The notes below the pieces were generated by a model, which did no database searches, was not told where the DNA came from, and saw nothing but the letters and a program-made list of their open reading frames with translations. This document shows positions 4,827 through 62,555 of a DNA stretch of 64,000 nt, piece after piece. The translations under genes were made by a program, and so were the position numbers. Origin of the DNA: Spirochaetia bacterium (GTDB lineage Bacteria > Spirochaetota > Spirochaetia > SZUA-6 > Bin103); NCBI GenBank assembly GCA_965208575.1, contig CBDBOV010000004.1, forward strand, positions 992,001 to 1,056,000. The letters run 5' to 3'. Every line of letters starts with the position of its first letter. The first letter of the stretch is position 1.

Positions 4827-4887
4827 CCGAGCGCTGACCGTCCGCTCCTTGTGTTTCCGCCGTCCAATGGCTAACTTTGCGCCTGCG

Positions 4888-14663: not shown

Positions 14664-15929
14664 ATGCGTGCACGGACCGGCGGCGGCGCTCACGGGGCCG
14701 GCACCTCGCGTCGGCAGTTCCTGACCGCCGCCGGCAAGGGCGCGGTGCTGGCGCTGACCATGTTCGGCGCCGGGCCGCGGGTTGCCGCGCGCGGTCTGTT
14801 CGGGCGCGGCCTGCTGCCGAGCGCCTGGCACAGCATCGCGGATTCGCCGCTGCCGAAGCCGGGCATGATCGTACACGGCGAGTTGCCGTTCAACGGCGAG
14901 TTCCCGCCTCACCTGCTCGACGACCCGGTCACGCCGACCGCGCGCCACTTCGTGCGCAACAACGGCGGCGTGCCGGCGCGCGCGCGCAGCAAGGATCTGA
15001 GCGGCTGGGCACTGCGCGTCGACGGCGAAGTACGCCACTCCCTGGCGCTTACGCTGGACGAGCTGCTGTGCCTGCCGCAGGTCACGATGCAGGCGGTGCT
15101 GGAGTGTGCCGGCAACGGCAGGAGCCTGTTCACGCCGCCGGTGGGCGGTACGCCGTGGATCCGGGGCGCCGTAGCGTGCAGCGAGTGGACCGGGGTGCGG
15201 CTGCGCGACGTGCTGGAGTTGGCCGGGGTGCGCGACAGCGCCGTCTACGTCGCGGCATTCGGCGAGGATGCGCCGCTCGACGGCGGTGAGCCGTTCTCGC
15301 GCGGCATCCCGATCGGCAAGGCGATGGATGAGCACACGCTGATCGCGCTGGCGATGAACGGCGTACCGCTGCCGGCCGCGCACGGCTTTCCGGCACGGCT
15401 GCTGGTGCCGGGCTGGATTGGGAGCGCGATGCAGAAGTGGCTGCGCCGCCTGTGGGTGCGCGACCGCGTGCACGACTCCGCCAAGATGAGCGGCTACTCC
15501 TACCGAGTGCCGGCCCATCCGGTCGCGCCGGGCGCCACGCCGGCCGCCGAGGAGATGCGGATCGCCACCGCGTGGGTGGTCAAGTCGCTCATCACCCGGC
15601 CGCGCAGCGGACACGAGGCGGCGCAGGGCGAGACGCTGCAGGTGGGCGGCCATGCCTGGGCCGGCGATAACGAGGTGGTGCGCGTTGCGGTGTCCACCGA
15701 CTTCGGCATCACCTGGCAGGAGGCGCGCCTGGCCGCTCCCGCCAACCGCTACGCCTGGTACCACTGGCAGACCGAGGTGGCGTTCCGCAACCGCGGCTAC
15801 TACGAGATCTGGGCGCGCGCGTTCGACCACACCGGCAATGCGCAGCCGTTCCGCCAGCCCTGGAATCCGAAGGGCTACCTCGGCAACGTCGTTCACCGGG
15901 TGCCCGTGATGGTCGCTGCAGCGGCCTGA
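14664..15929 (+). CDS. Tat-exported sulfite oxidase-family molybdoenzyme (SoxC/SorA-like)
   Basis: SRRQFL Tat signal, HFVRNNG, LECAGNGR (Mo-ligating Cys), HGFPARL, WNPKGYLGN. Confidence 0.9.
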   Translation: MRARTGGGAHGAGTSRRQFLTAAGKGAVLALTMFGAGPRVAARGLFGRGLLPSAWHSIADSPLPKPGMIVHGELPFNGEFPPHLLDDPVTPTARHFVRNNGGVPARARSKDLSGWALRVDGEVRHSLALTLDELLCLPQVTMQAVLECAGNGRSLFTPPVGGTPWIRGAVACSEWTGVRLRDVLELAGVRDSAVYVAAFGEDAPLDGGEPFSRGIPIGKAMDEHTLIALAMNGVPLPAAHGFPARLLVPGWIGSAMQKWLRRLWVRDRVHDSAKMSGYSYRVPAHPVAPGATPAAEEMRIATAWVVKSLITRPRSGHEAAQGETLQVGGHAWAGDNEVVRVAVSTDFGITWQEARLAAPANRYAWYHWQTEVAFRNRGYYEIWARAFDHTGNAQPFRQPWNPKGYLGNVVHRVPVMVAAAA

Positions 15930-15990
15930 CGGCGCGCGACCGCCCGCCTGCCGCCTTGCGAGAGCGGCGGCGCGCGGGCGATAGTGACCC

Positions 15991-16782
15991 ATGGCGGACA
16001 CCAACCCCTTCTCCCTTGCCGGCCGCCGCGCCCTGGTCAGCGGCGGCAGCCGCGGCATCGGTCTCGGCGTAGCCGCGGCGCTGGCCGACGCCGGGGCCGC
16101 GGTCGCGCTGGTAAGCCGCGACCCGCAAGCGCTGGCGGCGGCGCGCGACCGCATCGTCGCGCGCGGCGGCGAGGCCGCCACCTACCCGTGCGATCTGACC
16201 GACACCGGCGGCATCGACGACCTGTACCGGCGGGTACGCGCCGACGGTCCGGTCGACATCCTGGTGAACAACGCCGGCGGTACGCGGCGCGCTCGGGCGG
16301 CCGATCTCGCCGCGGCGGACTGGCAGTTCGTGCTCGACCTCAACCTGACCGCCGTGTTCCGCCTGACGCAGGCGTTCGGCCGGGACCGGATCGCGCACGT
16401 GGGAGGTGCGGCGGCGCCGGCCGGCTCGGCCAAGGTGATCAACATCGCATCGCTGCTCAGCGAGCAGGCGCGCCCGCAGAACGCCCCCTACGCGGCCACC
16501 AAGGGCGCCATCCGCCAGCTCACCAAGGCGCTGGCGGTCGAGTGGGCGCCCTACGGTATCAACGTCAACGCCATCGGTCCGGGGTACATAAAGACCGACA
16601 TGACGCGCCCGCTGTGGGAGGACGACTCGTTCGACGCCTGGGTGCGCGACCGGGCGCCGCTCGGCACCTGGGGCACGCCGGCCGACATCGGCGCCGCGGC
16701 GGTGTTCCTGGCCTCCGCCGGCGCAAACTACATCACCGGCCAGGTGCTGTACGTGGACGGCGGATGGCTGAGTTCCCTGTAG
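15991..16782 (+). CDS. SDR oxidoreductase (gluconate 5-dehydrogenase-like)
   Basis: SGGSRGIG, DILVNNAG, YAATKG, VNAIGPG, YVDGG. Confidence 0.9.
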   Translation: MADTNPFSLAGRRALVSGGSRGIGLGVAAALADAGAAVALVSRDPQALAAARDRIVARGGEAATYPCDLTDTGGIDDLYRRVRADGPVDILVNNAGGTRRARAADLAAADWQFVLDLNLTAVFRLTQAFGRDRIAHVGGAAAPAGSAKVINIASLLSEQARPQNAPYAATKGAIRQLTKALAVEWAPYGINVNAIGPGYIKTDMTRPLWEDDSFDAWVRDRAPLGTWGTPADIGAAAVFLASAGANYITGQVLYVDGGWLSSL

Positions 16783-16904
16783 CAGCGGCGCGGCGCTCGG
16801 CGCAATAGTTGCCGGATTGGGCTGCGTTTGCGCTACATTGCGCATAGCAGTATTCCGCCGGACACCACGGCGGAGACGAAGACAGAGCGTGGAGGAAAGC
16901 GCAC

Positions 16905-18179
16905 ATGAATACCGGAATCGGCGACATGGCCGTCTACATCCCCAAGCTGATCATGCGCTTGAGCCGCCTGTTGGAACGCTACGCGTTGTCCAATCCCACC
17001 ATTCAGCGCATCCTGGATCGAGCCATCCACAAGACCGGGCAGATCTCGGTACGCTTTCCGCACTTCTGGGAGGATGCGGTCACCATGGCGGCGCAGGCCG
17101 CGATGCAGGTGCTGTCGCGCATGAACGACGGCGCCATCGCCAGCTTGCGCTACATCGCGGTGGGCACCGAGTCGGCCACCGACCTCGCGAAGCCGATCGC
17201 GGCCCACGTCGGCGGCATGCTGCGCGCCGCCGGCTTTCCCATCTCCACCTCGATCGCCACGTTTCAGACCCAGCACGCCTGCGCCGGCGGCACCTACTCG
17301 CTGCTCGGGGTGGGCGCGCTGCTGTCGCTGAGTCCGGTGAGGAGCGAGCGCGGGCTGGTGATCTGCACCGACGTGGCGCGCTACGCCCCCGGCACCAGCG
17401 CCGAGATTACCGCCGGCGCCGGCGCCGTCGCCATGGTCGCCGAACGCGGCTGCGGCCTGGTGGAGCTGGACGTGGCCAGCACCGGCTACGCCTCCCGCGA
17501 CGTGGACGACTTCTTCCGTCCGGTCGGCGCCATCACACCGCGGGTGCGCGGTTCGTACTCGATCAACTGCTACAAGGAGACGATCGAGGACGCGTTCCTG
17601 GACCACTGCCGGCGCGTCGGCATGTCCCCCGCCGAGGTGCTGCGCGAGACCGACCTGTTTGCCTTTCACGCGCCCTACCATCACCTGCCGCTGGAGTTGA
17701 TGGGCTCCCTGGTCGCCCGCTACCTCGGACTCTCCGGGCCCCGGATCAACCGCTATCTCGCCGAACGCGACTTCGACGCTTCGATCAGGCCGGCCGCCAT
17801 CGTCGGCAACCTGTACTCGGGTTCGGTGTTTCTGAGCCTCGCCTCGCTGCTCAACCGGCGCTGCCAGCGGCGCGGCGACCGCATGGTCGGCGAGCGCCTG
17901 CTGATGCTGTCGTACGGATCGGGCAACACCGCCGTGGCGCTGAGTGGCCGGGTGGCGGAGCGTGCCCCGGAGGTGATCCGCCGATGGGACATGGATTCGG
18001 CGCTGAATCACGCGCAGGAGGCGCCGTCGGACGACTACGACCGCTGGGTCGCCGGCGACGGCGAGCAGGCCGGCTTCCGCACGCCGAGTCACGCCGCGGC
18101 GAGCGGGATTCCGCGCGACTCCTTCTACCTGGAACGTATTCGCGACGACGGTTACCGCGTGTACGCGCTGCATCGGTAG
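16905..18179 (+). CDS. mvaS: Hydroxymethylglutaryl-CoA synthase (spirochete type)
   Basis: GTESATD, QHACAGG (catalytic Cys), AEITAGAGA, DVDDFFRP, FHAPY, GNLYSGS, SYGSG, DGYRVY; GGAGG RBS. Confidence 0.88.
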   Translation: MNTGIGDMAVYIPKLIMRLSRLLERYALSNPTIQRILDRAIHKTGQISVRFPHFWEDAVTMAAQAAMQVLSRMNDGAIASLRYIAVGTESATDLAKPIAAHVGGMLRAAGFPISTSIATFQTQHACAGGTYSLLGVGALLSLSPVRSERGLVICTDVARYAPGTSAEITAGAGAVAMVAERGCGLVELDVASTGYASRDVDDFFRPVGAITPRVRGSYSINCYKETIEDAFLDHCRRVGMSPAEVLRETDLFAFHAPYHHLPLELMGSLVARYLGLSGPRINRYLAERDFDASIRPAAIVGNLYSGSVFLSLASLLNRRCQRRGDRMVGERLLMLSYGSGNTAVALSGRVAERAPEVIRRWDMDSALNHAQEAPSDDYDRWVAGDGEQAGFRTPSHAAASGIPRDSFYLERIRDDGYRVYALHR

Positions 18180-18181
18180 CG

Positions 18182-19300
18182 GTGCGGGACGCCACGCTCG
18201 TTACCGATCCGCCCCGCACCGGCCCGAGCACCGGCTCGAGCCGCGCGGCGCCGGGCCCGCCGTCCTCGTTCGGAGCACAGGATCGGCAGGCGGTGGAGCG
18301 GTTCGTCAGCGAGTTCCTGGCCGGCAAGCATGCCGACGGGGCCGGCGAGGTGGCCGACCGCTTCGCCGAGTACGTGTGCCGCGGCAAGATGATGCGCGCG
18401 GCGCTGGTAGTGCTGGCATTCCGGATGGGCCGGACCGGGCCGTTGTCCACCGATGTCCTGCGCTGCGCGTCGGCGCTGGAACTGCTGCACTCCGCCATGC
18501 TGATCCACGACGACATCATCGACCGCAGCGACACCAGGCGCGGCATGCCGGCATGGCACGTGCGCTACGCGCGGCGCGCCGGATTGTGGGACGCCGCGGA
18601 GGCGGCTCACGTCGGGCGCAGCATGGCGCTGTGCGCCGGCGACGTGGGCTTTTTCTTCGCATTCGAGTTGTTGGCGCAGATCGACGCCGACCCGCACACC
18701 AAGCGCGAGTTGCTGACCGCCGTGACCCGGACCGCCGGCACCGTGGGCGTCGGCGAAATGAACGAGATGCATCTCGCCGTCGACCATCGCGGCAACGACG
18801 ACGCCATTCTCGAAGTGTACGCCCAGAAGACCGCCGGCTACTCCTGCGCGCTGCCGCTGACCGCCGGCGGGCTCCTGGGTGGACTGGCCGCCGAGACGCT
18901 GGCGGAACTGGCGGCGATCGGGCGAGCGCTCGGGGAAATCTTTCAGATCATCGACGACGAACTGGACCTGTTCGGCGACGAGCTCGAGATGGGCAAGCCG
19001 GTCGGCGCCGACGTCCGGGAGGGCCGCCACACCCTGTTCTATGCCCTGCTGAGCCGCCACCTCCCGGCGCAGGAGTGGGCCCGGATCAGCGTTCTGTTCG
19101 GCGACCGCAACCTGCGCCACGACGACCTGCTGCCGGTGCGCGAAGCGATCGACGCGGCCGGCATCCGCGACATGGTGGGCGCCCGCCTGCTGCGCACCGC
19201 GGACGCCGCCCGGCGCCGCGTGCAGACGCTGGCGGTGGCGCCGCCGCACCGCGCGTCCCTGCTCGGGATGTTCGACGCCGTGCTGGCGCGGCGCCCCTGA
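18182..19300 (+). CDS. crtE: Geranylgeranyl diphosphate synthase (polyprenyl synthetase)
   Basis: GKMMR, LIHDDIIDRSDTRRG (FARM), KTAGYS, FQIIDDELD (SARM); start uncertain. Confidence 0.85.
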   Translation: MRDATLVTDPPRTGPSTGSSRAAPGPPSSFGAQDRQAVERFVSEFLAGKHADGAGEVADRFAEYVCRGKMMRAALVVLAFRMGRTGPLSTDVLRCASALELLHSAMLIHDDIIDRSDTRRGMPAWHVRYARRAGLWDAAEAAHVGRSMALCAGDVGFFFAFELLAQIDADPHTKRELLTAVTRTAGTVGVGEMNEMHLAVDHRGNDDAILEVYAQKTAGYSCALPLTAGGLLGGLAAETLAELAAIGRALGEIFQIIDDELDLFGDELEMGKPVGADVREGRHTLFYALLSRHLPAQEWARISVLFGDRNLRHDDLLPVREAIDAAGIRDMVGARLLRTADAARRRVQTLAVAPPHRASLLGMFDAVLARRP

Positions 19301-19347
19301 CGGACGTGGCGACACGCGGGTACGAAGCCCGCGCGCCGAGCGACCGG

Positions 19348-20556
19348 ATGCGAGCGGCCGGCCGGCACGGCGCGGAGCCGACCACCGTGGACCTGGTGCT
19401 GTGCGGCGGCGGGCTGCAGAACGCGTTGGTGGCGACCGCCTTGTTCGGCGCACCGGGCATGGCACCCGGGCGCGCGCCGCCGCGCACCGCGCTGCTGGAG
19501 CGGACCACGATCGGCGGCAACCACACCTGGTGCTGCTACGAGAGCGACCTGTCTTCGGCCATGCGCCGCCAGGTGGCGCCGCTGGTCAGCCGGCGCTGGG
19601 AGGGTTACGAGGTGCGCTTCCCCGGCTACCGGCGCCGCCTGGCTACCCCCTACCTGATGATTGCCAGCGAGCACTTGCGCCGCGTGGTACGCGCCCTGCT
19701 GTCGGGCCGCCCGGACGCGCTGGTGCGGGAACACGCACCGGTGGCGCGGCTGGAAGCGAGCCGGGTGCTGCTGGAAGACGGCGGCGAGGTGGCCGGAAAC
19801 ACGGTGATCGACGCACGCGGCGCCCAACGGCACGCCGAACACTGCGGCTACCAGAAGTTCTACGGCGAAGAGGTCACCCTGGAGGCGCCGCACGGCCTGG
19901 ACCGGCCGCTGGTGATGGATGCCACGGTGCCGCAGCGGGACGGGTTCCGCTTCATGTACGTGCTGCCGCTGTCGCCGCGGCGCGCGCTGGTCGAGGACAC
20001 GAGCTTCTCCGATGGACCGGAGCTCGACGTCGAGCAGCGGCGGGCCGGCATCGCCGCGTGGATGGCGCACCACCGCTGGCGGCGGGCCGCCGTCACGCGC
20101 ACCGAGCGCGGCGTGCTGCCGATGCCGTGGCGGATGCCGGCGCCGGTGGCGCAGCCGCTGCCCGGGGTGATCCGCGGCGGCTACGGCGGCGGCTGGTTTC
20201 ACCCCGGCACCGGCTACTCGCTGCCCCAGGCAGCCGAGCTTGCCGCCCTGGTCGCGACTACCGCGATTCCCGACCTGTGCACGGCGGCGACCGCGGCCCG
20301 TCACCGCCTGCAGCGCCGCGCCCGCTTCTGCTGCATGCTCAACCGGCTGCTGTTCCAGGCCTACCCGCCGGAAGCGCGCCGCAACATATTCGAGCGCTTC
20401 TTCCGGCTCCCGGAACCGACCATTCGCCGCTTCTTCAGCATGCAACTGCAGGGCGCGGACAAGGTGCGCCTGCTCGCCGGTCGCCCGCCGCGCGGGCTGT
20501 CGCCGCGGCGCCTGCGCGCGGCGGGGGCCGGCACCGGCGGCGCCGCAACGCCGTGA
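19348..20556 (+). CDS. crtY: Lycopene beta-cyclase
   Basis: GGGLQN, GGNHTWC, GYQKFYG, PLVMDATVPQRDGFRFMYVLP, VEDT, HPGTGYSLP; start may be 19306. Confidence 0.9.
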   Translation: MRAAGRHGAEPTTVDLVLCGGGLQNALVATALFGAPGMAPGRAPPRTALLERTTIGGNHTWCCYESDLSSAMRRQVAPLVSRRWEGYEVRFPGYRRRLATPYLMIASEHLRRVVRALLSGRPDALVREHAPVARLEASRVLLEDGGEVAGNTVIDARGAQRHAEHCGYQKFYGEEVTLEAPHGLDRPLVMDATVPQRDGFRFMYVLPLSPRRALVEDTSFSDGPELDVEQRRAGIAAWMAHHRWRRAAVTRTERGVLPMPWRMPAPVAQPLPGVIRGGYGGGWFHPGTGYSLPQAAELAALVATTAIPDLCTAATAARHRLQRRARFCCMLNRLLFQAYPPEARRNIFERFFRLPEPTIRRFFSMQLQGADKVRLLAGRPPRGLSPRRLRAAGAGTGGAATP

Positions 20557-22073
20557 GCCGGGCCATGGGCCGGAGCGCGCGGGTGGCGGTGATCGGCAGC
20601 GGATTCGGCGGCCTCGCGGCGGCCATCCGCCTGCAGGCGGCGGGGCTGGCGACCACGCTGTTCGAAGCGCGCGAGCAGCCGGGCGGCAGGGCGTACGTGT
20701 GGCGGCACGGGGATTTTACGTTCGACATGGGCCCGACGGTGATCACCGATCCGACGCTGCTGGAGGAGCTGTTCGCCGTGGCCGGCGCCACCCTGAGCGA
20801 CCGGGTAGAGCTGATGGCGGTCGATCCGTTCTACCGCCTGCTGTGGCCGGACGGCGACCGCTTCGACTACTGTGCCGACGGCGGGGAGCTGTCGGCACAG
20901 ATCGCGCGCCGCAATCCCGCCGACCGTGACGGCTACCGCCGCTTCCTGGACTACTCGCGGCGCGTGTTCGCCACCGGTTACGAGGAACTGGCCGCGACCC
21001 CGTTCCTGCGCTTCTGGGACATGGTACGGGTCGCGCCACAACTCGCCGGCCTGCGCGCGGACCGTTCGGTCTATCGCACGGTGGCGCGCTTCATCGGCGA
21101 TGAGCGGATCCGCGAGGCGCTCAGTTTCCACACCCTCCTGGTGGGCGGCAACCCGTTCGAGACCAGCGCCATCTATACCCTCATTCACTATCTCGAACGC
21201 CGCTGGGGCGTGTTCTATCCGCGCGGCGGCGTCGGCGTCCTGGTGCGCGCCCTGGCGCGCCTGTTCGCCGACCTCGGCGGCCGCCTGCTGCTGGCCAGCC
21301 CCGTCGACAGCGTCGCGCTCGAGGGCGCCCGGAATCGCTCCATCCACTACCTCTCCTACACGCGCGCGGGCTCCCGGCACCGCGAGCCGTTCGACGCCGT
21401 GGTGTCCAACGCCGACGTGCACCACACCTACGCGGCGCTCTACCGCGACACCGCCGGCGCCGGGCGGCGGCGGCGCCGGCTGGAACGGGCGGTTTGGTCG
21501 ATGTCGCTGTTCGTGCTCTACTTCGGCACCGACCGCGACTATCGCGGCGAGGTGGTGCATCACTCGGTGCTGTTCGGCCCGCGCTACCGGGAGCTGCTGG
21601 CCGACATCTTTCACGGTGCGCGGCTGCCGGAGGACTTCTCGCTCTACCTGCACGCGCCGCACGTCACCGATCCTTCGATGGCGCCGCCGGGGCACGGCAC
21701 GTTCTACGTGCTCGCGCCGGTGCCGCACCTCGGCAACGCCGCCGTGCAGTGGGAGCGGATCGCCGAGCACTATGCCGACCGCATTCTCGCCGCCGTCGAG
21801 CGCGTGCTTCCCGACCTGCGCCGCCACATCGTCGTCCGGCGCTGGATCACGCCGTTCGACTTCCGCCGCCGGCTCAACGCCTACCACGGCAGCGCGTTCT
21901 CGCTGGCGCCGACCCTCACCCAGAGCGCGTGGTTCCGCCCCCCCAACCGCGACCCCCGCATCGAAGGACTGTACCTGGTCGGGGCCGGCACCCATCCGGG
22001 GGCCGGCATTCCGGGCGTGATCAACTCGGCGCGCGCCACCGCGAAACTCGTCCTGGAGGATGTCGCGCCGTGA
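20553..22073 (+). CDS. crtI: Phytoene desaturase
   Basis: VIGSGFGGLAAAIRLQA, FDMGPTVITDP, LLVGGNPF, DFSLYLHAP, QSAWFRP, YLVGAGTHPGAGIPGV; GTGA overlap. Confidence 0.95.
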   Translation: MSRAMGRSARVAVIGSGFGGLAAAIRLQAAGLATTLFEAREQPGGRAYVWRHGDFTFDMGPTVITDPTLLEELFAVAGATLSDRVELMAVDPFYRLLWPDGDRFDYCADGGELSAQIARRNPADRDGYRRFLDYSRRVFATGYEELAATPFLRFWDMVRVAPQLAGLRADRSVYRTVARFIGDERIREALSFHTLLVGGNPFETSAIYTLIHYLERRWGVFYPRGGVGVLVRALARLFADLGGRLLLASPVDSVALEGARNRSIHYLSYTRAGSRHREPFDAVVSNADVHHTYAALYRDTAGAGRRRRRLERAVWSMSLFVLYFGTDRDYRGEVVHHSVLFGPRYRELLADIFHGARLPEDFSLYLHAPHVTDPSMAPPGHGTFYVLAPVPHLGNAAVQWERIAEHYADRILAAVERVLPDLRRHIVVRRWITPFDFRRRLNAYHGSAFSLAPTLTQSAWFRPPNRDPRIEGLYLVGAGTHPGAGIPGVINSARATAKLVLEDVAP

Positions 22074-23038
22074 ACCGCCGGGACGGGCCGCTGGTGGCGG
22101 CGGAGGTGGCGGCGGAGTGCCGGCGCCGCATCGCGGCCGGCTCCAGGAGTTTCGCGCTTGCCGCGCACCTGCTGCCGCGTGACAGCCGCCATGCGGCGCT
22201 GGTGGTGTACGCCTGGTGCCGGCGGGCGGACGACGCCATCGACGGCGCCCCGCCGGCGCACCGGCCGGCGGCGCTGGCCGCGCTGCACGATGAGTTGGAG
22301 CGAGTCGCCGGCGGTTCCACCATCGGCGACCCGGTCATCGACGCCTTCGGCGCGGTGATGAGCGCCACCGGGATGCCGCGGCACTATCCGCGCGAGATGC
22401 TCGCCGGCATGCGCATGGACCTGGAGCGCACCGCGTACGAGGATCTGCCCGATCTGCTGCGCTACTGCTACCGCGTCGCCGGCACGGTCGGCCTGATGAT
22501 GTCGCACGTCCTCACGCTGCGCGACGATGCCGCACTGCAGGCGGCAGCGCAGTTGGGCGTGGCAATGCAACTCACCAACATCTGCCGCGACGTGCTGGAA
22601 GACTGGCACCTCGGGCGGGTGTACCTGCCGGTAGCCTGGCTGGCGCGGGCCGGGCTCGGCGACTTGCGCGCGCGGCCCGACGCCGCGTTCCCGAGCGCGG
22701 CGCGCGACCGGCTGCGCCCCGTGGTTGCCGACGTGCTCGCACTTGCCGGGCGGTACTATGCCGGCGCCGAGCGAGGCTTCATTGCCCTGCCGTGGCGCGC
22801 GGCGCTGTCGATTCGCGCCGCGCGCGGCATCTACGCGGCAATCGGCGACCGCGTGGCGCGCGCCGGCTGCGACGTCACCGCCGGACGCGCGGTCGTGCCG
22901 CTGGCCGGCAAGCTGGCGGCGGTGTGCGCGGCCGCCGGCGCCGCGGCGGCCGAACTGCCCGCCCGGCTGCGCGCCGCCGGCGGCGCGTTCCACGCTCCCG
23001 AACGGGTGTTCGAGTTCGCCGACCTGGAGCCGGCATGA
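22070..23038 (+). CDS. crtB: Phytoene synthase
   Basis: GSRSF, YAWCRRADDAID, YCYRVAGTVG, MQLTNICRDVLED, GRVYLP. Confidence 0.94.
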   Translation: MNRRDGPLVAAEVAAECRRRIAAGSRSFALAAHLLPRDSRHAALVVYAWCRRADDAIDGAPPAHRPAALAALHDELERVAGGSTIGDPVIDAFGAVMSATGMPRHYPREMLAGMRMDLERTAYEDLPDLLRYCYRVAGTVGLMMSHVLTLRDDAALQAAAQLGVAMQLTNICRDVLEDWHLGRVYLPVAWLARAGLGDLRARPDAAFPSAARDRLRPVVADVLALAGRYYAGAERGFIALPWRAALSIRAARGIYAAIGDRVARAGCDVTAGRAVVPLAGKLAAVCAAAGAAAAELPARLRAAGGAFHAPERVFEFADLEPA

Positions 23039-25335
23039 AGCTGAGCGGCACCGCGCTGACCGCCGGTTTCAACCGGGTGGCGCACGCCTACGACCTGCTG
23101 GTAACGCTCAATCCCGGCTACCGGCGCCACCTGCGGCTCAGCGCACGGCGCCTCGAACTGGGCCCCGGCGCGCGCATCCTCGACCTGTGCTGCGGCACCG
23201 GCCAGTCGACCCTGGCGCTGCGCGCCGCGTATCCGGACGCCGTGCTGGTCGCCCTGGACGCCGCCGACGAGATGCTGCAGGTGGCGCGCGCCCGGCCTGA
23301 GCTGGCCGGCGTGCAGTTCGTGCACGGCGACGCCATGGAGCCGCGGGCGTACGGTGTGCGCGGCTCGTTCGACGGCATCCTGATGGCATACGGCATCCGC
23401 AACGTCATCGACGCCGACGCCTGCCTGGCGGCGGTGCGCGAGCTGCTCGCCGCGCGCGCCGCGGTCTGCTTCCACGAGTACTCGGTGGCCGGCTCGGCGG
23501 TCAGCCGCACGGTGTGGCGGGCGGTGACCAACGCCATCGTGCGCCCGGCCGCCCGCGTCCTGGCCGGCGATGACCGCCTGTTCGTCCATCTGCGCGACAG
23601 CGTACTGGCATTCGACAGCCGCGCCGCCTTCGAGCGCCGCCTGTACCGCGCCGGATTCGCCGCCGTGCGCACCCTGCCCATGGGCGGCTGGCAGCGCGGC
23701 ATCGTGCACTCGTTCCTGGCCCGCCGCCCCGCGCCCGCCCCACCCGCTCCGGCGGCGCCGGCGCGCAATGGCGGCCACCAGGCTGCCGGTGCCGATACGG
23801 GCGGCCAAGGCAGCGGCGCGGCACCGGCTACGTCGGCGCACCGCCGGAGTTACGCCGCGGGTACCGGCGCGGGCGGCCACGTCACGCCGGCGCCGGCGCG
23901 CACCGCCGTGGTGATCGGCGGCGGCATCGCCGGGGTGGCGGCGGCCACCGTGCTCGCCGAGCGCGGCGTCGCCACCACCGTGCTGGAGCGGGAGCCGGCG
24001 CTCGGCGGGCGCGCGGGCGCGGCGCCTCTGCGCCTCGCCAGCGGCGAGACGGTGCAGATGGAGCGCGGCTTCCACGCCTTCTTCCGCCAGTACTACAACC
24101 TGCGCAACCTGCTGCGGCGCGTCTCGCCCGAGCTCGACATCCTGGCCCCGCTCGACGACTACCCGGTGCTCGGCCCGCACGGGCAGCGCCAGTCGCTGGC
24201 GGACATTCCCCGCACGCCGCCGTGGAACATCGTGACGCTGACCCGGCGCACCCCCGAACTGACCCTGCCCGCGCTGGCGCGCGTCGGGCTGCGCGAGGCG
24301 CTGTCGATGCTGGCATTCGACATCGACCGTACCTACCGGCGCCACGATCACCGCACCGCCGCCGAGTACCTGGACGCGCTGCGCTTCCCGCCGGCCGCCC
24401 GCCGCATGCTGTTCGACGTGTTCGCCCACTCCTTCTTCAACCCGGAGGGCGGCATGTCGGCCGCCGAGCTGTTGATGATGTTCCACTTCTACTTCACCGG
24501 GAGCCGCGAAGGCTTGATCTTCGACGTGGCGCGCGCGCCGTTCTCGACCGCCATCTGGCAGCCGCTGCAGCGCTACCTCGCCAACCTCGGCGCGCGGGTG
24601 GCCACCGGCACGGCCGCACGCGCGGTCCGGCGCGCGCAGGGCGGCTGGGAAGTCGAGACCGGCGGGGCGCAGCGCGCCTCGTTCGCCGCCGAAGCCGTGG
24701 TGCTCGCACTCGACGTGGCCGGGCTGCAGCGGCTGCTGCCGCACACCCCGTTCCGCGACGGCGCGTGGGCGGATTCGCTCGCGAGCCTGGCAACCACGCT
24801 GCCGTTCGCGGTATGGCGGCTGTGGCTGGACACCCCCACCGCGCCGGGGCGGGCGCCGTTTGCCGGCACCGCGGGCGTCCCGCTGCTGGACAACATCTCG
24901 CTGTTCCACCTGTTCGAGGACGAGAGCCGCGCCTGGGCCCGCGCCCACCACGGCTCGGTGGTGGAACTGCACGCGTACGCCGTGCCGGAGACCGCCTCCG
25001 AAGCTGACATCAGGGCCGCCCTGCTGCGCGGGCTGCATCGGCTCTACCCGGAGACGCGTCCGGCGCGCGTGGTCGACGACGCCTTCCTGCTGCGCCGCGA
25101 CTGCCCGGCATTCGGTCCCGGCTCGCACGCCCGCCGTCCCGGCGTGGCCACCCCCCATCCGGGGCTGTACCTGGCCGGAGACTACGTGCGCATCGACCAG
25201 CCCTCGGCGCTCATGGAGCGTGCGGCCGCGACCGGCATCAGCGCCGCCAACGCCATCCTGCGGCGCTGGCACCTGCCGCCCGAGCCGGTAGCGTCGGTGC
25301 GCCGCACCGGCATCCTGCCGAGATTCGCGGCATGA
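23035..25335 (+). CDS. crtU: Fusion of a CrtT-like SAM methyltransferase and a CrtU-like beta-carotene desaturase (isorenieratene synthase)
   Basis: N-terminal YDLLVTLNPGY, ILDLCCGTG, HEYSV, GWQRGIVHSFLAR; ~55-aa linker; then VIGGGIAG, RGFHAFFRQYYN, HSFF, FHFYF, VVELHAYA, LMERAAATG; one uninterrupted ORF. Confidence 0.82.
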   Translation: MKLSGTALTAGFNRVAHAYDLLVTLNPGYRRHLRLSARRLELGPGARILDLCCGTGQSTLALRAAYPDAVLVALDAADEMLQVARARPELAGVQFVHGDAMEPRAYGVRGSFDGILMAYGIRNVIDADACLAAVRELLAARAAVCFHEYSVAGSAVSRTVWRAVTNAIVRPAARVLAGDDRLFVHLRDSVLAFDSRAAFERRLYRAGFAAVRTLPMGGWQRGIVHSFLARRPAPAPPAPAAPARNGGHQAAGADTGGQGSGAAPATSAHRRSYAAGTGAGGHVTPAPARTAVVIGGGIAGVAAATVLAERGVATTVLEREPALGGRAGAAPLRLASGETVQMERGFHAFFRQYYNLRNLLRRVSPELDILAPLDDYPVLGPHGQRQSLADIPRTPPWNIVTLTRRTPELTLPALARVGLREALSMLAFDIDRTYRRHDHRTAAEYLDALRFPPAARRMLFDVFAHSFFNPEGGMSAAELLMMFHFYFTGSREGLIFDVARAPFSTAIWQPLQRYLANLGARVATGTAARAVRRAQGGWEVETGGAQRASFAAEAVVLALDVAGLQRLLPHTPFRDGAWADSLASLATTLPFAVWRLWLDTPTAPGRAPFAGTAGVPLLDNISLFHLFEDESRAWARAHHGSVVELHAYAVPETASEADIRAALLRGLHRLYPETRPARVVDDAFLLRRDCPAFGPGSHARRPGVATPHPGLYLAGDYVRIDQPSALMERAAATGISAANAILRRWHLPPEPVASVRRTGILPRFAA

Positions 25336-26273
25336 GGGGACGCCTGCTCGGACGCCGGCCCGGCTCCGCGCTGCCGGCCGCCTCCGGTCGCGCCCGGCCC
25401 GACTGGCAGCAGTCCGATCCGGGCTGGATCCGGCGCGCGGTGGAGCGTGCCGGCCGGCTGCCGTCCGGCGGCTGGCACGTGATCGACGCGGTGCGTGCCA
25501 TCGGTGAGGTGCCGTGCCGCTACCGGGTGGCGGACCGCGAGCTGGTAGTGTGGCGCGGGCGGTCGGGGCTGCTGGTGGCGCCCAACGCCTGTCCGCACCT
25601 GGGCGCGTCGCTGGCCGAAGGGCACCTGCGCGACGGCTGCCTGGTGTGTCCCTGGCACGGCCTGGTGCTGGGCGCGGACGGCCACCGCGGCTGGCGGCCG
25701 CTGCCGAGCCACGACGACGGCGTGCTGCTGTGGGTGCGCATCGCCGCCGGCGGCGAACCGCCCTCCGACCTCCCCTACCGGTGTACCCGCCCGCCTGCCG
25801 GCATCGACGCCGTCATCCGCATGGAAGCGCGCTGTGCGCCGCAGGACATCATCGCCAACCGCTTCGACCCGTGGCACGGCGTGCACTACCACCCGCACTC
25901 GTTCGGCGCTCTTTCCGTGCTGGAACAGAGCGACGACGCCATCACCGTGCGCGTGGTGTACCGCGCCACCCGGCGCATGGGCGTGGAGGTGGATGCGCGG
26001 TTTCACTGCCCGGACCCGCGCACCATCGTGATGACCATCGTCGACGGCGAGGGCGCCGGATCGGTGGTGGAGACGCACGCCACGCCGGTACGGCGGGGCG
26101 TTTGCGCGATCGTGGAGGCGACCGTGGCTACCTCGGAGCGCTTCGGCTTCCGGCTCGCGATGCGCGCCGCCGGCCTTCTGCGGCGCCGGATGCAGGCCTC
26201 CGCACGCCGCCTCTGGGCAGAGGACGCCGCCTACGCGGAACGGCGCTACGCACTGCGCACCGGGTCGCATTGA
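25332..26273 (+). CDS. crtV: Rieske-domain carotenoid-cluster protein (CrtV/DUF5914-like)
   Basis: CPHLGASL...CPWHG Rieske motif, ANRFDPWHG..HP.SF, VVETHATP, LWAEDAAYAERRY. Confidence 0.8.
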   Translation: MRGRLLGRRPGSALPAASGRARPDWQQSDPGWIRRAVERAGRLPSGGWHVIDAVRAIGEVPCRYRVADRELVVWRGRSGLLVAPNACPHLGASLAEGHLRDGCLVCPWHGLVLGADGHRGWRPLPSHDDGVLLWVRIAAGGEPPSDLPYRCTRPPAGIDAVIRMEARCAPQDIIANRFDPWHGVHYHPHSFGALSVLEQSDDAITVRVVYRATRRMGVEVDARFHCPDPRTIVMTIVDGEGAGSVVETHATPVRRGVCAIVEATVATSERFGFRLAMRAAGLLRRRMQASARRLWAEDAAYAERRYALRTGSH

Positions 26274-26300
26274 CCGGAGCCCGGCACGCGGCGCCCGCCG

Positions 26301-27302
26301 TCAGTGCGTGTGGTAGAGCAGCAGGTGGTCGCGCAGCACGTCCTGGGCGAAGTCGTTCTCCACGTCGCGCCACACCGAGTGCACGTGGTTGGCGGCGTTC
26401 TGGCAGTTGTCGAACTCGACCAGGAAGTTGCCGCCGTGGATCCGGTAGTAGTGCCCCTCGCGGCGGGCAACCGGACCGGCCCACGCCAGCCGCAGGTGGC
26501 CGACGCCGTCGCGGCGCAGGTGCTCGAGCTTGTGCCGCGCAACGTCGCTGCGCACCTGGCCCACGTACGTTTCCACCAGGGCGGTGAGCATCTGCTGCTG
26601 AGCGGCGTCGAGGCGGTCGCCCGGCAGTCCCTCTTCGCGCGGCAGCACGGCGCGCGTGCTGTTGTAGGTGAGGATGTCCCACGGCGCCTTGTCGTAGATC
26701 ACCGCCCGTGAGCGCTGGCTGCGGTCGAGGCTGTCCATCAGTTGCAACGCGAGGTCTTCGCGGCGCGCCAGAATGCGCAGCCCGCGCTTGGGGCCGTGCA
26801 GCACCTCCGCCGGGTTGGAGCCGTAGAAGAACGGCGTGGTGGAAATGACGCGTTCGCCCCAGACGCTGAAGTGCAGCGACAGGTGGTGCCCCTCGGCGCG
26901 CCACCCCCAGGGATCATCGCCGTGCGGATCGCCGAACACGGTGAAGTAGTAGCGGCCCGGGTCGCGCGCCCAGTGCACCTGGCCCGCCGCGCGCTCCTGC
27001 TCGCCCAGGATCAGTTCGTGATCGATAATCGCGCACGCCTGTTCGTAACCCTGCTCCGAAAGCGACGCCTCCAGCACGCGCCTGGCCAGCCGCTGCTGTT
27101 CCTCCGTCATCGCCAGCAGCGGCAGACCGTGCCGGTTCAGCGGCGGGTAGTACCAGAACAGGCGCTCGCCGTCGAGGTAAGGAAACGTGGCGCGGGCGCG
27201 CTGCTCCGCGTCCAGGCTCTCCAGCAGGTCGCCGCACGCCGCCGCCATCTGGCGGGCCGCTTCCGGGTGTCCGTTGGCCTGCATGGCCGCCGGCTCAGCC
27301 AC
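26301..27302 (-). CDS. DUF3500-family protein
   Basis: YYFTVFGDP, WGWRAEGHHLSL, TPFFYGSNP, YYRIHG..FLVEFDN, NHVHSVWRD..NDF. Confidence 0.85.
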   Translation of the reverse strand: MAEPAAMQANGHPEAARQMAAACGDLLESLDAEQRARATFPYLDGERLFWYYPPLNRHGLPLLAMTEEQQRLARRVLEASLSEQGYEQACAIIDHELILGEQERAAGQVHWARDPGRYYFTVFGDPHGDDPWGWRAEGHHLSLHFSVWGERVISTTPFFYGSNPAEVLHGPKRGLRILARREDLALQLMDSLDRSQRSRAVIYDKAPWDILTYNSTRAVLPREEGLPGDRLDAAQQQMLTALVETYVGQVRSDVARHKLEHLRRDGVGHLRLAWAGPVARREGHYYRIHGGNFLVEFDNCQNAANHVHSVWRDVENDFAQDVLRDHLLLYHTH

Positions 27303-27717
27303 GCGCCGGAGTGTCGTCGTCGCGGCGCCGCCGCGCGATGATCTCCGGGAACTCGTAGTAGATCAGACCGTCGTCGTGCACCTCCATGGTCACCCGCGTG
27401 CTGTCGACGAGCTGCCCGAGAAACGCCTCCGCCTCCTCGATGCTGAAGTCGAGGTCGACCACCAGGTCGGAAACGGTCAGCCGCCCGCCGAGCCGGTAGG
27501 CGAGACGAAACACCCGGTTCACCCGGCGGCCGTCCGCCGCCCGGCCTCCGGTCGCCGGCGCGTCCGGCGCGCGTGCCGGCCACGCAAACCGCTCCCGGCT
27601 CACCGGCCGATGGCGGCGGGCGTCGCGCAAGGCGGAGCGCGCCAGGTTCAGGACGAGAAAGATGAACAGGAACGGCAGAATGCCGACCACCAGTCCGAAT
27701 CCCGCAAACGGCCACAT
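27295..27717 (-). CDS. Hypothetical membrane-anchored protein with a C-terminal wHTH-like domain
   Basis: N-terminal TM; RLAYRLGGRLTVSDLVVD...DDGLIYYEFPEI; stop overlaps the DUF3500 start. Confidence 0.7.
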   Translation of the reverse strand: MWPFAGFGLVVGILPFLFIFLVLNLARSALRDARRHRPVSRERFAWPARAPDAPATGGRAADGRRVNRVFRLAYRLGGRLTVSDLVVDLDFSIEEAEAFLGQLVDSTRVTMEVHDDGLIYYEFPEIIARRRRDDDTPARG

Positions 27718-27949: not shown

Positions 27950-29089
27950 CTATTGACACTTCTGGCGGCGCGTCTCGAACTCTTTTGTGCATATGAGACC
28001 CTTCAATTCGCAATCCACAATCCAGCGTTCCGACTCGCCACATAATGGAACCTCGCCGTCCCATCCTTCATTCGCTGATTCGCACCTGATACTGGTGCAT
28101 TCACCCAGAGTCGTAATCTCCGGCGTTTCCTTACCGTCGCAATTGAAATCGTATCTTCCGTCCATGTCAGGTGCGTCAAACCAATTCGTTTGGCCTGGGA
28201 AGACGGTGTCATCGAGATCCAGACAGTCTCCAGTCACGTCGGAGTATCCTGCGGTTTTCACAAAGTCAAATCGAACTTCACTACCGCCGACACCGTCGCC
28301 GTCCAGGTCCCGAAAGAACTCCTTTGTTGGCTCCTTCCCCAACTCGTCAGCAATCGATGGGATTGCGTCCGGATTGTAGTACGTGAACGGATCCCTGTAT
28401 CCGACGGCCGTGTCGGCACCATACTCCAGCGTCATCACCTTGCCGTCACGGCTCAGTGATACGAGGTCCATTTGCAGGAGGTCGGCAATGTTCACTCCGG
28501 TGTCGGCGTCGATCGAACTCCGAAAACGAAAGTCGATGGTACCATCACTTACCACGATCACTTCCGACAACAACCTCAACCTCGTTTCCGGCGACCCGTC
28601 AGAAGACCCGGCGGATGCCAAGACGCTGAGCAATTGCCTTCGGGTGTCCAAATCGAGTGACTGGATATGTTCAAGCAACCCCGCCAGGGTGACGCTTGCG
28701 ATGTACCCGTCGCGAATGGTGAGGGTGGCCTCCTCCATGTTTCCTAGCGCCGCCTCTATTCCCCCAACACTCGAGTTGGCGCGGAAGTACTTCACAGCCA
28801 ATCCAGTATAGTTGAAGGAAGCCGTGGCGTATTCCTCTTTTGTGAGCGGCAACTCACCCCAATCATCGTCGAGCACGATGGGTTGAATACTCCGGTCTAT
28901 GACAGTTCCCGCACCGTAGCCGCCTCCTAGTCCGAAAGATTCATACTCCTTGAAGGGAGACGGATCGGGATCGGGTGGCGGCGGACACGAAGCTGCCGCA
29001 AGCGTTACGAGCAACAACGGAACAAGAAGCAGCTTGGACGAATTGCCTGATGTGCCCGGCTTTCTCGTATACTCACGCGGTGGTGCCAT
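27950..29089 (-). CDS. Low-GC lipoprotein with a C-terminal Cys/Asp-rich putative metal-binding domain
   Basis: Lipobox LAAASC; RDLDGDGVG...GDCLDLDDTVFPG...DFNCDG and several C-terminal Cys; atypical codon usage. Confidence 0.72.
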   Translation of the reverse strand: MAPPREYTRKPGTSGNSSKLLLVPLLLVTLAAASCPPPPDPDPSPFKEYESFGLGGGYGAGTVIDRSIQPIVLDDDWGELPLTKEEYATASFNYTGLAVKYFRANSSVGGIEAALGNMEEATLTIRDGYIASVTLAGLLEHIQSLDLDTRRQLLSVLASAGSSDGSPETRLRLLSEVIVVSDGTIDFRFRSSIDADTGVNIADLLQMDLVSLSRDGKVMTLEYGADTAVGYRDPFTYYNPDAIPSIADELGKEPTKEFFRDLDGDGVGGSEVRFDFVKTAGYSDVTGDCLDLDDTVFPGQTNWFDAPDMDGRYDFNCDGKETPEITTLGECTSIRCESANEGWDGEVPLCGESERWIVDCELKGLICTKEFETRRQKCQ

Positions 29090-29403
29090 TGCTGTACCTC
29101 CAGTCCACGCACCGAGTGTGGTCAGAGTCGCGCGCGCAGGTCAAGAAGCAGCCTGACGGCGCGAGCTTCGTTGGCGAAGCGGCATGGGCGAGCCGGCGGC
29201 AACGGCCGGGATGTCGCGGCGGGCCAAACCGATCCACCTGGTCGGCGCAGCGTTCAGCCGCCAAACCCGCAACATCACCGCCTTCGACACCAGCGACGCC
29301 TGACGCGAGGGTGCAAGAGGCTCCACGTCGCCCGGCAGTCTCCTGATCCCGGCCCGTGAAGCGCGAGTGACCGCACGCCATTGTTCATAGCGAGGACCCA
29401 ACC

Positions 29404-30399
29404 ATGCTGCACGACGAAAACTACAAGCGTCTGTTCGCCTCCCCGCTCATGGTCCAGGATGTGCTGCGTGCCTGCCTGCCCGCCCACCGGCTGGCCGCCG
29501 CGGACTTCTCCAGCTTGGGCAAGCTCTCTGCCGAGTATGTCAGCGACGAACTGCGCACCCGCCACGGCGACACCGTCTGGCACCTGCGCCTGGGCCGACG
29601 GCGGGTGTTTCTGCTCATGCTGCTCGAGTTCCAGGCGCAGGACGATCACTGGATGGCGCTGCGCATCCTCACCTACAGCGGTCTGCTGTACCAGGAACTG
29701 GTGCGCAATCAGGCCCCGGAGGTGGCTGGCGAGCGCCTCCCGGCGGTGATGCCGGTGGTGCTCTACAACGGCACCGAGCCGTGGACCGCAGCCCGGAACA
29801 TGGGCGCCCTGATCACACCGGTGGGACCGTGGCTGGCGCCGTATCAGCCGGCCCAGCACTACTACCTGCTTGACTTGCAGCGGGTGCGGGCGGATGATCT
29901 TCCGTACCGCAACCTGCTGCGGGCGGTGGCGCGGCTGGAGCAGAGCCGGTCGCCGGAGGAAGTGGTGCGGGTGGTGCAGGCGTTGCGGCGCTGGTTGCCG
30001 AACCGGGGCGCGGAGGAGTTGCAGCGCGCGTTCGTGGATTGGGTACGTCAGATTGTCGGACGGCTGGCGCCGACGGGAGCGACGGTGCCGCCGCTACGGA
30101 CACTGGAGGAAGCGAGCATGACGTTGGTCGAACGGGTCGCCGAATGGCCCAAGCAGTGGCTCCGTGAAGGCCGTGAACAGGGCGTTGCGGAAGGCCGCGA
30201 ACAAGGTGTTGACGAGCAACGGGCACTGTTGTGCCGGATGGCGGGGGCGCGCTTCGACGCCGAAACCGCCGTTCGCCTGGCCGACCTGCTGGCGCCGATC
30301 TCCGACCCGGAACACTTGGCCGAGGTCGGCGACTGGCTGGTGCGTTGCGACACCGCAGACAGGTTTCTCGCCCGCTTCGATCCCGCATCACCAACCTGA
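29404..30399 (+). CDS. Rpn-family (YhgA-like) PD-(D/E)XK nuclease
   Basis: HDENYKRLF, RHGDTVW, LLEFQ, MALRILTY, LPAVMPVVLYNG, EGREQG repeats. Confidence 0.9.
   Translation: MLHDENYKRLFASPLMVQDVLRACLPAHRLAAADFSSLGKLSAEYVSDELRTRHGDTVWHLRLGRRRVFLLMLLEFQAQDDHWMALRILTYSGLLYQELVRNQAPEVAGERLPAVMPVVLYNGTEPWTAARNMGALITPVGPWLAPYQPAQHYYLLDLQRVRADDLPYRNLLRAVARLEQSRSPEEVVRVVQALRRWLPNRGAEELQRAFVDWVRQIVGRLAPTGATVPPLRTLEEASMTLVERVAEWPKQWLREGREQGVAEGREQGVDEQRALLCRMAGARFDAETAVRLADLLAPISDPEHLAEVGDWLVRCDTADRFLARFDPASPT
30118..30399 (+). CDS. Putative intragenic small Rpn (RpnS) antitoxin, in-frame internal start
   Basis: GGAGGA at 30105-30110 and an in-frame ATG at 30118 just before the repeat-containing C-terminal domain. 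Confidence 0.55.
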   Translation: MTLVERVAEWPKQWLREGREQGVAEGREQGVDEQRALLCRMAGARFDAETAVRLADLLAPISDPEHLAEVGDWLVRCDTADRFLARFDPASPT

Positions 30400-30670
30400 C
30401 ACTTGCAGTCCGAGCTGCCCGCGCGCAGCCGCCCGAACGGTAGTTCGGGGCACTTCTGCCTGCCATGCAGCGATAGGTGTACCTCCTCAGGTCTAGAGGT
30501 TTAGCAAGCGCTCGCGCAGGTAGGTCGATAGGTACAGAGTGTGCGCTCGGCGAACAAGATCAGATTGGTTTCTGATCTGGCCGGACTTGATGATTGCCTC
30601 GATCGCCCTCCTCGTGCTTGCGGATTCACCGTGCTTTTCGGCATATTCACTATTTGGTCACGTACCGTCC

Positions 30671-60715: not shown

Positions 60716-60974
60716 AGCCGGGTGATGCCGCCCACGCCGCGAGCGGCGCGCAGGTTGCTGCGGAGCGCACGGAGCGAGGCGCCCCGGACAACTGCACCGA
60801 GGTGCGTTGCCCGGGGCAGGGTCATGACAATTCCCCACCGCCGGGACGGGGTAGGCGACGAGGTTGCGACACCGGAGCCGTCGGGATCGAACGGGGCGGA
60901 GGAGATGCTGTACCCCGCTGACGGACGGAGGGCGTAGCCCGACCGGAGTCAGCCGGCGCGGTGCCGTGGAGGCC

Positions 60975-62530: not shown

Positions 62531-62555
62531 GCACTGAATTGCATGGTTATGCATA

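Follow-up and report, generated by a model that had tools for sequence, protein, structure and literature searches.

We examined a stretch of 64,000 nucleotides from a Spirochaetia bacterium (G000:C4:992001-1056000, hereafter the window), which belongs to a genome of 6.5 Mb in six contigs, with 67% G+C, 95.2% completeness and 5.75% contamination. The subject of this analysis is a group of seven genes at positions 16905-26273, mvaS-crtE-crtY-crtI-crtB-crtT::U-crtV, where the double colon denotes a gene fusion, which had been predicted to form an operon for an aromatic (aryl) carotenoid of the isorenieratene type. The plot of G+C content by codon position, in which the third position (GC3) marks coding frames, shows an unbroken series of plus-strand frames over the whole interval, and the translations agree with it, in support of the seven co-oriented genes of the original prediction. 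Pfam and NCBIfam scans of the translated genes back the identities proposed for them at the level of families, with the following results.

16905-18179, plus strand: mvaS paralogue (hydroxymethylglutaryl-CoA (HMG-CoA) synthase, 424 aa), leading the operon; HMG_CoA_synt_N and HMG_CoA_synt_C domains
18182-19300 (alternative start GTG 18293), plus strand: polyprenyl synthase ('crtE'); Pfam polyprenyl_synt, E 8e-48
19306-20556, plus strand: crtY, lycopene beta-cyclase of the CrtY (proteobacterial) type; TIGR01789, 300.8 bits, cut-off 215.2
20553-22073, plus strand: crtI, phytoene desaturase; crtI_fam TIGR02734, 636.4 bits, cut-off 238.1
22070-23038, plus strand: crtB, phytoene synthase; Pfam SQS_PSY, E 4e-67
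23035-25335, plus strand: crtT::crtU fusion, 766 aa; Ubie_methyltran at residues 12-212, Amino_oxidase at residues 298-742
25332-26273, plus strand: crtV, 313 aa; Rieske [2Fe-2S] and DUF5914 domains, Pfam, E 7e-71

Four overlaps of 4 nt, read directly from the sequence, join the last five genes, namely GTGA at 20553 (crtY/crtI), GTGA at 22070 (crtI/crtB), ATGA at 23035 (crtB/crtT::U) and ATGA at 25332 (crtT::U/crtV), exactly as had been proposed. That all seven genes abut, which had also been claimed, is certain for these five and probable for the first two junctions, because two starts are ambiguous: crtE may begin at GTG 18182, 2 nt past mvaS, or at GTG 18293, after a gap of 113 nt, and its similarity to relatives begins only at residue 33; crtY may begin at GTG 19306 or at ATG 19348. 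Judging by its family, the 'crtE' product is probably a geranylgeranyl diphosphate (GGPP) synthase, and the top NCBIfam models for crtB are 15-cis-phytoene synthases, each scoring under its equivalog cut-off. The gene order is kept in three other spirochaete-labelled loci (L005, L006 and L007), which have all eight genes when the upstream short-chain dehydrogenase/reductase (SDR) gene is included, and L013 has the same set minus crtE.

The fusion gene crtT::crtU has a frame that is open throughout, with no internal stop. Its product comprises a UbiE-like S-adenosylmethionine (SAM) methyltransferase (residues 1 to about 232), a low-complexity linker of Pro, Ala and Gly (about 233-288) and a CrtU-type FAD desaturase (about 289-766). 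The latter, or U domain, was matched by Amino_oxidase (298-742, E 1.5e-36) and also by NAD_binding_8; across 26 aligned U-domain sequences 116 positions are invariant, and the invariance of G295, G296, G297 and G300 in all of them agrees with a fold of the PDS/amine-oxidase type. Its best solved relative is the plant phytoene desaturase 5mog, which fits the published kinship of CrtU with CrtP and CrtQ (PMC2889829). Homologues at 55-84% identity carry the names 'isorenieratene synthase' or 'carotenoid phi-/chi-ring synthase' at JGI, which are automatic names, and the genes that would supply CrtU with its substrate, crtY, crtI and crtB, share its operon. For the T domain the best solved relatives are the aromatic C-methyltransferases CouO and NovO, a weak match that covers the SAM-binding core only. 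T and U are fused in the window, L005, L006, L007 and L013, and are separate genes in 43 other loci, only one of the two having been matched in a further 12. Both fusion domains occur in 49 of the 119 other protein clusters listed, which are all 72-94% identical to the window. Fusion of T to U is confined to the host genus.

The last gene, crtV, encodes a protein in which the CxH...CxxH Rieske ligands C87, H89, C106 and H109, as well as D179, H182 and H187 of a D-x2-H-x4-H motif and the downstream carboxylate D298, are invariant in 30 homologues; by analogy, we take H182, H187 and D298 to be ligands of a mononuclear iron. Foldseek relates its AlphaFold2 model (pLDDT 92.4, pTM 0.90) over the whole length to KshA, dicamba monooxygenase, the saxitoxin hydroxylases SxtT/GxtA and guaiacol O-demethylase, the matches to 2zyl, 3gb4, 7qwt and 6wnd having a probability of 1.00, E values of 1e-13 to 1e-11 and 270-370 aligned columns, with TM scores of 0.47-0.64 (mostly 0.5-0.64). 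The invariant ligands and the predicted fold together indicate that CrtV would be a compact Rieske non-heme-iron monooxygenase.

The obvious counterpart of this gene set is the isorenieratene cluster of Streptomyces, which has seven genes in two units (PMC13505331; PMC8539372). This cluster, crtEIBV/crtYTU in S. griseus and S. coelicolor (SCO0185-0191), encodes the same seven enzyme families, in a host that is likewise non-phototrophic, and in it too crtU is accompanied by crtT and by a Rieske/DUF5914 crtV with the same Pfam architecture. The primary paper on it is reportedly that of Krügel et al. 1999. The Streptomyces cluster consists of two opposed units with separate T and U genes, whereas the window has a single operon, led by mvaS, with T and U fused, and its host, a spirochaete, takes the mevalonate route. 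Using the plasmid locus of Streptomyces anulatus (L071, crtY-crtT-crtU facing crtV-crtB-crtI-crtE) as a reference, we obtained identities of 48% for T, 46% for U and 50% for V, and of 33%, 38% and 34% for CrtI, CrtB and CrtE, respectively. The window cyclase, being of the CrtY (TIGR01789) type, is barely alignable with that of Streptomyces (a match of 107 aa only) and is 40% identical over 368 aa to CrtY of the gammaproteobacterium Thiodictyon. With such a cyclase, and with early genes at 33-38%, the two clusters fall short of orthology.

Nearer relatives exist in other phyla. A search with the fusion protein returned 62 loci, in which the top eleven, all labelled Spirochaetia or Spirochaetaceae, are followed by metagenome-assembled genomes (MAGs) of Gemmatimonadota, Latescibacterota, Krumholzibacteriota, Acidobacteriota, Myxococcota and Acidimicrobiia. 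Y, I, B, T/U and V occur together and in the same order in 19 of the 47 non-spirochaete loci (L016-L062), with identities to the window of 42-48% for Y, 59-67% for I, 43-55% for B, 54-61% for T/U and 54-64% for V. The Gemmatimonadota locus L019, which was annotated in full, reads crtY-polyprenyl synthase-crtI-crtB-crtT-crtU-crtV. The nearest clusters, those of Gemmatimonadota, Latescibacterota, Krumholzibacteriota, Acidobacteriota and Myxococcota (for example L019, L024 and L037), share the order Y..I-B-T-U-V with the window, with CrtI at 63-67% (in the Gemmatimonadota and Latescibacterota copies), CrtB at about 50% and T and U at 55-61% identity, and differ from it in having separate T and U, a dissimilar polyprenyl synthase of their own between crtY and crtI, and no mvaS; the window polyprenyl synthase gave no tblastn match at 1e-10 to the synthase inside the Gemmatimonadota cluster. 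On these comparisons the operon would be best filed with the uncharacterised Y-E-I-B-T-U-V clusters and, functionally, with the isorenieratene cluster of the Streptomyces type.

Quick maximum-likelihood trees of CrtU, CrtV, CrtY and CrtI recovered the spirochaete copies as monophyletic in each case, with support of 100, 99, 100 and 100, respectively. In the CrtU and CrtI trees the spirochaete clade is placed amid rows of Myxococcota and of the Gemmatimonadota group. In that of CrtU, Streptomyces and Acidimicrobiia are basal and the spirochaete clade is not sister to the Actinomycetota rows; the window groups with S. anulatus and Acidimicrobiia to the exclusion of the Rieske-containing CruE-type enzymes of Thiodictyon and Calothrix, which lie outside on a long branch (support 100). 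Since the same composite cluster is present in many phyla and the spirochaete copies form a single clade, the pathway does not appear to have been assembled within the spirochaete. Instead, these trees and gene orders point to the Y-I-B-T-U-V cluster as an old, widely shared unit that the spirochaetes received once. The G+C content of the operon (72-76% over 20000-26000, as compared with 67% in each of the six contigs) fits a foreign origin with incomplete amelioration.

The recipient had been taken for a spirochaete, rather than for an actinobacterium or myxobacterium with an ordinary cluster, and its RpoB agrees with this. All matches at 65-81% identity are spirochaete-labelled except two oddly labelled bins (66%), and they include Spirochaetia MAGs, Treponema, Sediminispirochaeta, Sphaerochaeta and Rectinemataceae, while RpoB of other phyla reaches a best-segment identity of 44-61%. 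The window also carries infC-rpmI-rplT and proS. The prolyl-tRNA synthetase (ProRS) encoded by the latter was replaced by RpoB as a taxonomic marker, having given one spirochaete match at 78% and otherwise matches in Planctomycetota, Verrucomicrobiota and others at 51-72%. A search for the spirochaete flagellar sheath protein FlaA (PF04620) gave no match in the genome and none in the 14 control genomes either, and is therefore uninformative. The proS gene itself (4867-6399) belongs to the archaeal/eukaryote-like type, family I (TIGR00408, 458.8 bits). Besides the 78% spirochaete MAG, its closest matches, at 58-72%, come from Planctomycetota, Verrucomicrobiota and Myxococcota, so that proS is a poor guide to taxonomy and may have been transferred.

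The mevalonate supply that the original prediction assumed was also located. The genome has a mevalonate operon with genes for a class II HMG-CoA reductase, a diphosphomevalonate decarboxylase and two GHMP-kinase-like proteins, and a second mvaS on contig C6, 50.6% identical to the operon copy, adjoins fni (type-2 isopentenyl diphosphate isomerase). Dxr was not found in the genome, as assembled at 95.2% completeness and 5.75% contamination, by a search that was positive in 9 of 14 control genomes. Gene content thus predicts that the host relies on the mevalonate route.

Within the spirochaetes, the cluster follows one family. CrtV was surveyed in 40 relatives, namely 23 other genomes of the host family (f1) and 17 from seven further families of its order. 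It is present in 22 of the 23, with 9 of 10 in the genus of the window (g1) and 13 of 13 in a second genus (g2), and in none of the 17, in which crtY and crtT/U were not searched. Seven g2 loci have only crtY-T-U-V at this place, and g2 genomes hold elsewhere a different crtI-crtB pair, 29-35% identical to that of the window and of a type shared with other families of the order. In g1, the foreign-type crtI-crtB lies in the operon and there is no other copy.

The history of the operon mvaS is a different one. Among solved structures it is closest to the HMG-CoA synthase 5hwo (E 6e-41), with which its GTE, QHAC and H-x-P motifs align, presumably the catalytic Glu, Cys and His motifs. A foreign origin was considered for this gene and rejected, as nothing in the PDB scores points there (both copies match the same HMG-CoA synthase entries, the one in the operon at 144 bits and the second one at 158 bits) and the tree shows a duplication. 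In this tree of 31 sequences, those of the host family stand apart from other families (support 96), and the operon-linked clade (support 100) is sister to the g1 copy beside fni (SH-aLRT 92), which indicates that the operon mvaS arose by duplication of the native gene within the host genus and was not imported. The operon type was found in all 10 other g1 genomes, 7 of which have it on the contig of crtV and within about 8 kb of it, and in no g2 genome. The polyprenyl synthase adjoins mvaS in six g1 genomes; among the genomes searched, the sequences closest to it (31-42% identity) come from other families of the order. In one such family, contig C34 of G036 has a polyprenyl synthase, two crtI-like genes, one crtB-like gene and mvaS within 8 kb; mvaS beside carotenoid genes in other families suggests that the linkage between mvaS and pigment genes is old in this order. 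Apparently native carotenoid loci directly beside mvaS, made up of crtI-like genes, a crtB-like gene and a polyprenyl synthase, can be seen in other families of the order at G036:C34:9944-17439 and G038:C2:466145-472382. The mosaic that does exist, as far as these comparisons indicate, would therefore be one in which a Y-I-B-T-U-V block gained by horizontal transfer was combined with a duplicated native mvaS and a polyprenyl synthase.

Taken together, we consider it fairly probable that this is an operon for an isorenieratene-type aryl carotenoid, which a family of sponge-associated spirochaetes gained as one block and which was refitted in the host genus with a duplicated mvaS, a polyprenyl synthase and the T::U fusion; we infer every enzymatic step, the product and co-transcription from sequence. 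The mvaS paralogue would feed HMG-CoA into the host mevalonate pathway, and the polyprenyl synthase would provide GGPP, from which CrtB would make phytoene, CrtI lycopene and CrtY beta-carotene. The CrtU domain would then convert the beta-rings into aromatic rings by desaturation and a methyl shift, and CrtT and CrtV, as parts of the same conserved module, would probably assist this reaction or further modify the aromatic end group. Regarding its origin, the Y-I-B-T-U-V block would have reached the ancestor of the host family by horizontal transfer, as a unit like those of uncultured Myxococcota, Gemmatimonadota and related phyla, and would have been joined in the host genus to the duplicated native mvaS and the polyprenyl synthase, with crtT and crtU becoming fused.

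Several observations weigh against this proposal. First, over 465 aa the U domain has 46% identity with the gene that occupies the crtU position in S. anulatus, a gene that is itself assigned by synteny only, and an identity of 46% leaves the substrate and the ring type (phi or chi) unfixed. Second, NCBIfam has no CrtU model, and the best model for the U domain is HpnE, with 166 bits and thus below its cut-off of 283; the polyprenyl synthase reaches no NCBIfam equivalog cut-off; and the operon mvaS scores 236.5 bits with TIGR01835, below the cut-off of 360.35. Third, the deep forks of the trees are weakly supported, so that the donor and the direction of transfer are not fixed. Fourth, CrtT and CrtV may act on the carotenoid, in which case the end product may differ from isorenieratene. 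As for mvaS, the copy beside fni likewise remains below the cut-off (249.2 bits), and the shortfall of both host copies looks typical of the lineage. The reading of the U domain as HpnE, that is, as a squalene-related enzyme, was rejected, given its score under the cut-off and a cluster that has crtI, crtY and a single SQS_PSY gene, for which phytoene synthase models score best.

The strongest rival is that the product is a bicyclic non-aromatic carotenoid, either beta-carotene or a hydroxylated or methylated derivative of it, the CrtU-like domain being some other desaturase or inactive without partners. It draws on the fact that CrtU function is assigned from 46% identity and gene context, without a curated model specific for CrtU, and on a Streptomyces study in which beta-carotene was quantified as the read-out of a crt cluster predicted to make isorenieratene (PMC13505331). 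However, T, U and V are kept as a trio in the isorenieratene cluster of Streptomyces as well, a beta-cyclase is strictly co-located with CrtU, even in the g2 loci that have only Y-T-U-V, and the U domain keeps 116 invariant positions in 26 sequences, which makes this rival unlikely in our view.

We give much less credit to the history that the original prediction put forward, namely an operon assembled in the spirochaete from proteobacterial or myxobacterial crtY and crtI and actinobacterial crtT, crtU and crtV. The contrast in similarity to Streptomyces, with T, U and V at 46-50% but CrtI at 33%, CrtB at 38% and CrtY barely alignable, speaks for it, as does a CrtY that is 40% identical to its gammaproteobacterial homologue and scores above the cut-off of the CrtY equivalog model. 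Nevertheless, other phyla have the same genes clustered in at least 19 loci, where every gene is closer to the window (42-67%) than its Streptomyces counterpart, and the spirochaete clade has identical neighbours in the CrtU and CrtI trees; any assembly of the composite would thus have preceded its arrival in the spirochaetes. What stands of the actinobacterial look of T, U and V is their 46-50% identity to Streptomyces, the copies in other phyla being closer and the CrtU clade not sister to Actinomycetota. A mis-binned or chimeric contig of another sponge symbiont, for example of Myxococcota or Gemmatimonadota, for which the G+C of the cluster (72-76% in a genome of 67%), transposase-like genes 3-8 kb downstream of the operon and the estimated contamination of 5.75% might be cited, is scarcely credible for a window that lies in a 1.39-Mb contig also bearing the mevalonate operon and infC-rpmI-rplT, with a flanking SDR and mvaS that recur in synteny, at 90-92% identity, in L005 and L006, whose records measure 5.0 and 7.0 Mb and are titled chromosome 1, with CrtV found in all but one of the 23 other family genomes, many of which are a single contig, and with an operon mvaS that appears to be of native spirochaete descent.

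Returning to the favoured aryl-carotenoid operon, the roles of T and V may be approached through the company that they keep. Chi-ring synthases, that is, CruE/CruH of cyanobacteria and CrtU of purple sulfur bacteria, perform the same conversion of a beta-ring into an aromatic ring, at 29-40% identity in segments. Those of the CruE type (Thiodictyon and Calothrix) are a far outgroup with a Rieske domain inserted inside the desaturase, whereas in the window the Rieske domain sits in a separate, complete oxygenase, CrtV. The insertion lies in the middle of the amine-oxidase domain, at residues about 329-403 (L072 2708-4612; L073 2621-4573). Natural CrtU::CrtV fusions were seen in two metagenomic proteins, P0081 (914 aa) and P0110 (846 aa). 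Thus, by sequence, a [2Fe-2S] centre appears to recur with the CrtU desaturase family in three architectures, and the T::U and U::V fusions together with the Rieske domain inserted in CruE-type enzymes suggest that T, U and V are functionally linked, the fusions binding three 'accessory' genes into what would be one functional module. A complex prediction for the CrtU domain with CrtV gave a score of 0.00, which counts neither for nor against binding.

CrtU of Brevibacterium or of Streptomyces alone reportedly turns beta-carotene into isorenieratene in E. coli, and if CrtU alone suffices, T and V would be dispensable for aromatisation as such. It may be that the Rieske centre serves electron flow of the desaturase. 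Another possibility is that the aromatic end group is oxidised by CrtV and methylated by CrtT; here the analogy is with CruH of cyanobacteria, which is described as a hydroxylase/oxidase (PMC7395447) and is a possible functional analogue of CrtV. The cyanobacterial synechoxanthin pathway, as described in the same paper, has no SAM methyltransferase, unlike the window with its CrtT (PMC7395447). The crtV family member SCO0188 of S. coelicolor has been tabulated as a 'putative methylesterase' (PMC8539372), a label at odds with the fold; the Pfam DUF shared by these proteins (window 25332-26273; L071 9438-10454) could be renamed, and the literature search returned DUF5914 in no paper.

That the organism is a sponge symbiont had been raised as a condition for its being a candidate source of sponge aryl pigments, and public 'sponge metagenome' runs contain near-identical DNA. 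No RNA run was listed among those with matching DNA. We compared four runs of four studies, leaving out the best-matching run, which may be the source sample. Each of the four covers all 30 bins of the operon, with longest pieces about 93-98% identical to the window, such as 3321 nt with 65 differences and 2575 nt with 100 differences, which indicates that the organism or very close relatives live in sponges. Apparent joints in contigs of these runs, whose sides measure 20-24 nt in G+C-rich DNA, were judged spurious.

Aryl carotenoids, including isorenieratene, renieratene, renierapurpurin and more than twenty others, are characteristic sponge pigments that are presumed to derive from symbionts (PMC3093257), and cyanobacterial symbionts were hypothesised as their source in 2020 (PMC7395447). 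Families of terpene biosynthetic gene clusters (BGCs) in MAGs of sponge-associated spirochaetes, and an orange carotenoid-like pigment in Salinispira pacifica, have been described (PMC11656744); in the portion of that paper available to us the terpene clusters carry no aromatic-carotenoid assignment or gene-level analysis, and the word 'isorenieratene' occurs 0 times in the paper as a whole. CrtU has been noted in Myxococcota by KEGG orthology only (PMC10576062), and CrtU homologues in a non-phototrophic candidate phylum (PMC9342728). Within the accessible parts of this literature there is no paper that assigns aryl-carotenoid genes or isorenieratene to spirochaetes, although supplements (BGC tables of PMC11656744, the CrtU tree in S2 Fig of PMC9342728) may list similar clusters or homologues.

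The family of the host is therefore a testable candidate source of sponge aryl pigments, with a complete and compact operon, directly clonable, in a sponge-associated lineage that is not cyanobacterial. To our knowledge, these pigments have been without a known producer since the 1950s. A bolder proposal is that aryl carotenoids are made throughout this family of sponge spirochaetes, which would then be a genuine and perhaps major origin of the sponge pigments, with T-U-V as an obligatory module that oxidises and methylates the end group to give products beyond isorenieratene; we regard this as conceivable but doubtful. Fossil aromatic carotenoids are read as markers of sulfur bacteria of the photic zone, and clusters of the CrtU type in heterotrophic spirochaetes and in several uncultured phyla would widen their possible sources.

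Turning to the surroundings of the operon, the spacer between the SDR gene and mvaS is 122 nt long, with a conserved block and a GGAGG ahead of the ATG. Its features are the following.

About 16806-16860, plus strand: conserved upstream block, from the intergenic alignment with L005 and L006
16892-16896, plus strand: GGAGG ribosome-binding site before the mvaS ATG, kept in the alignment with L005 and L006

The invariant stretches in this alignment of the window, L005 and L006 are TAGTTGCCGG..TTGG and GCGCTACATTGCG, and positions 16806..16896 are likely to be the promoter or operator region of the operon, as this conservation suggests. Scans of 15800-27500 for the sigma-70 consensus (0 promoter-like sites) and for terminators (1 terminator-like site, within mvaS) were at or below shuffled expectation, and are hence uninformative; a search for short repeats 5' of mvaS gave matches of chance size only.

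Ahead of the operon, at 14664-16782, lie genes for a SorA-like molybdopterin sulfite dehydrogenase and for the SDR, with no evident link to carotenoids. L005 and L006 have the SDR in syntenic position, at 90-92% identity. On the other side, a convergent DUF3500 gene (26301-27302), also without an evident carotenoid link, terminates 28 nt beyond crtV. Just downstream, 28000-30400 is a stretch of low G+C (61%) with a YhgA-like transposase gene (29404-30399), and further on there are an rve integrase (33751-34587), a Transposase_29 gene (60966-62537) and a second rve-domain gene (62680-63954). The region downstream of the operon is rich in mobile elements.

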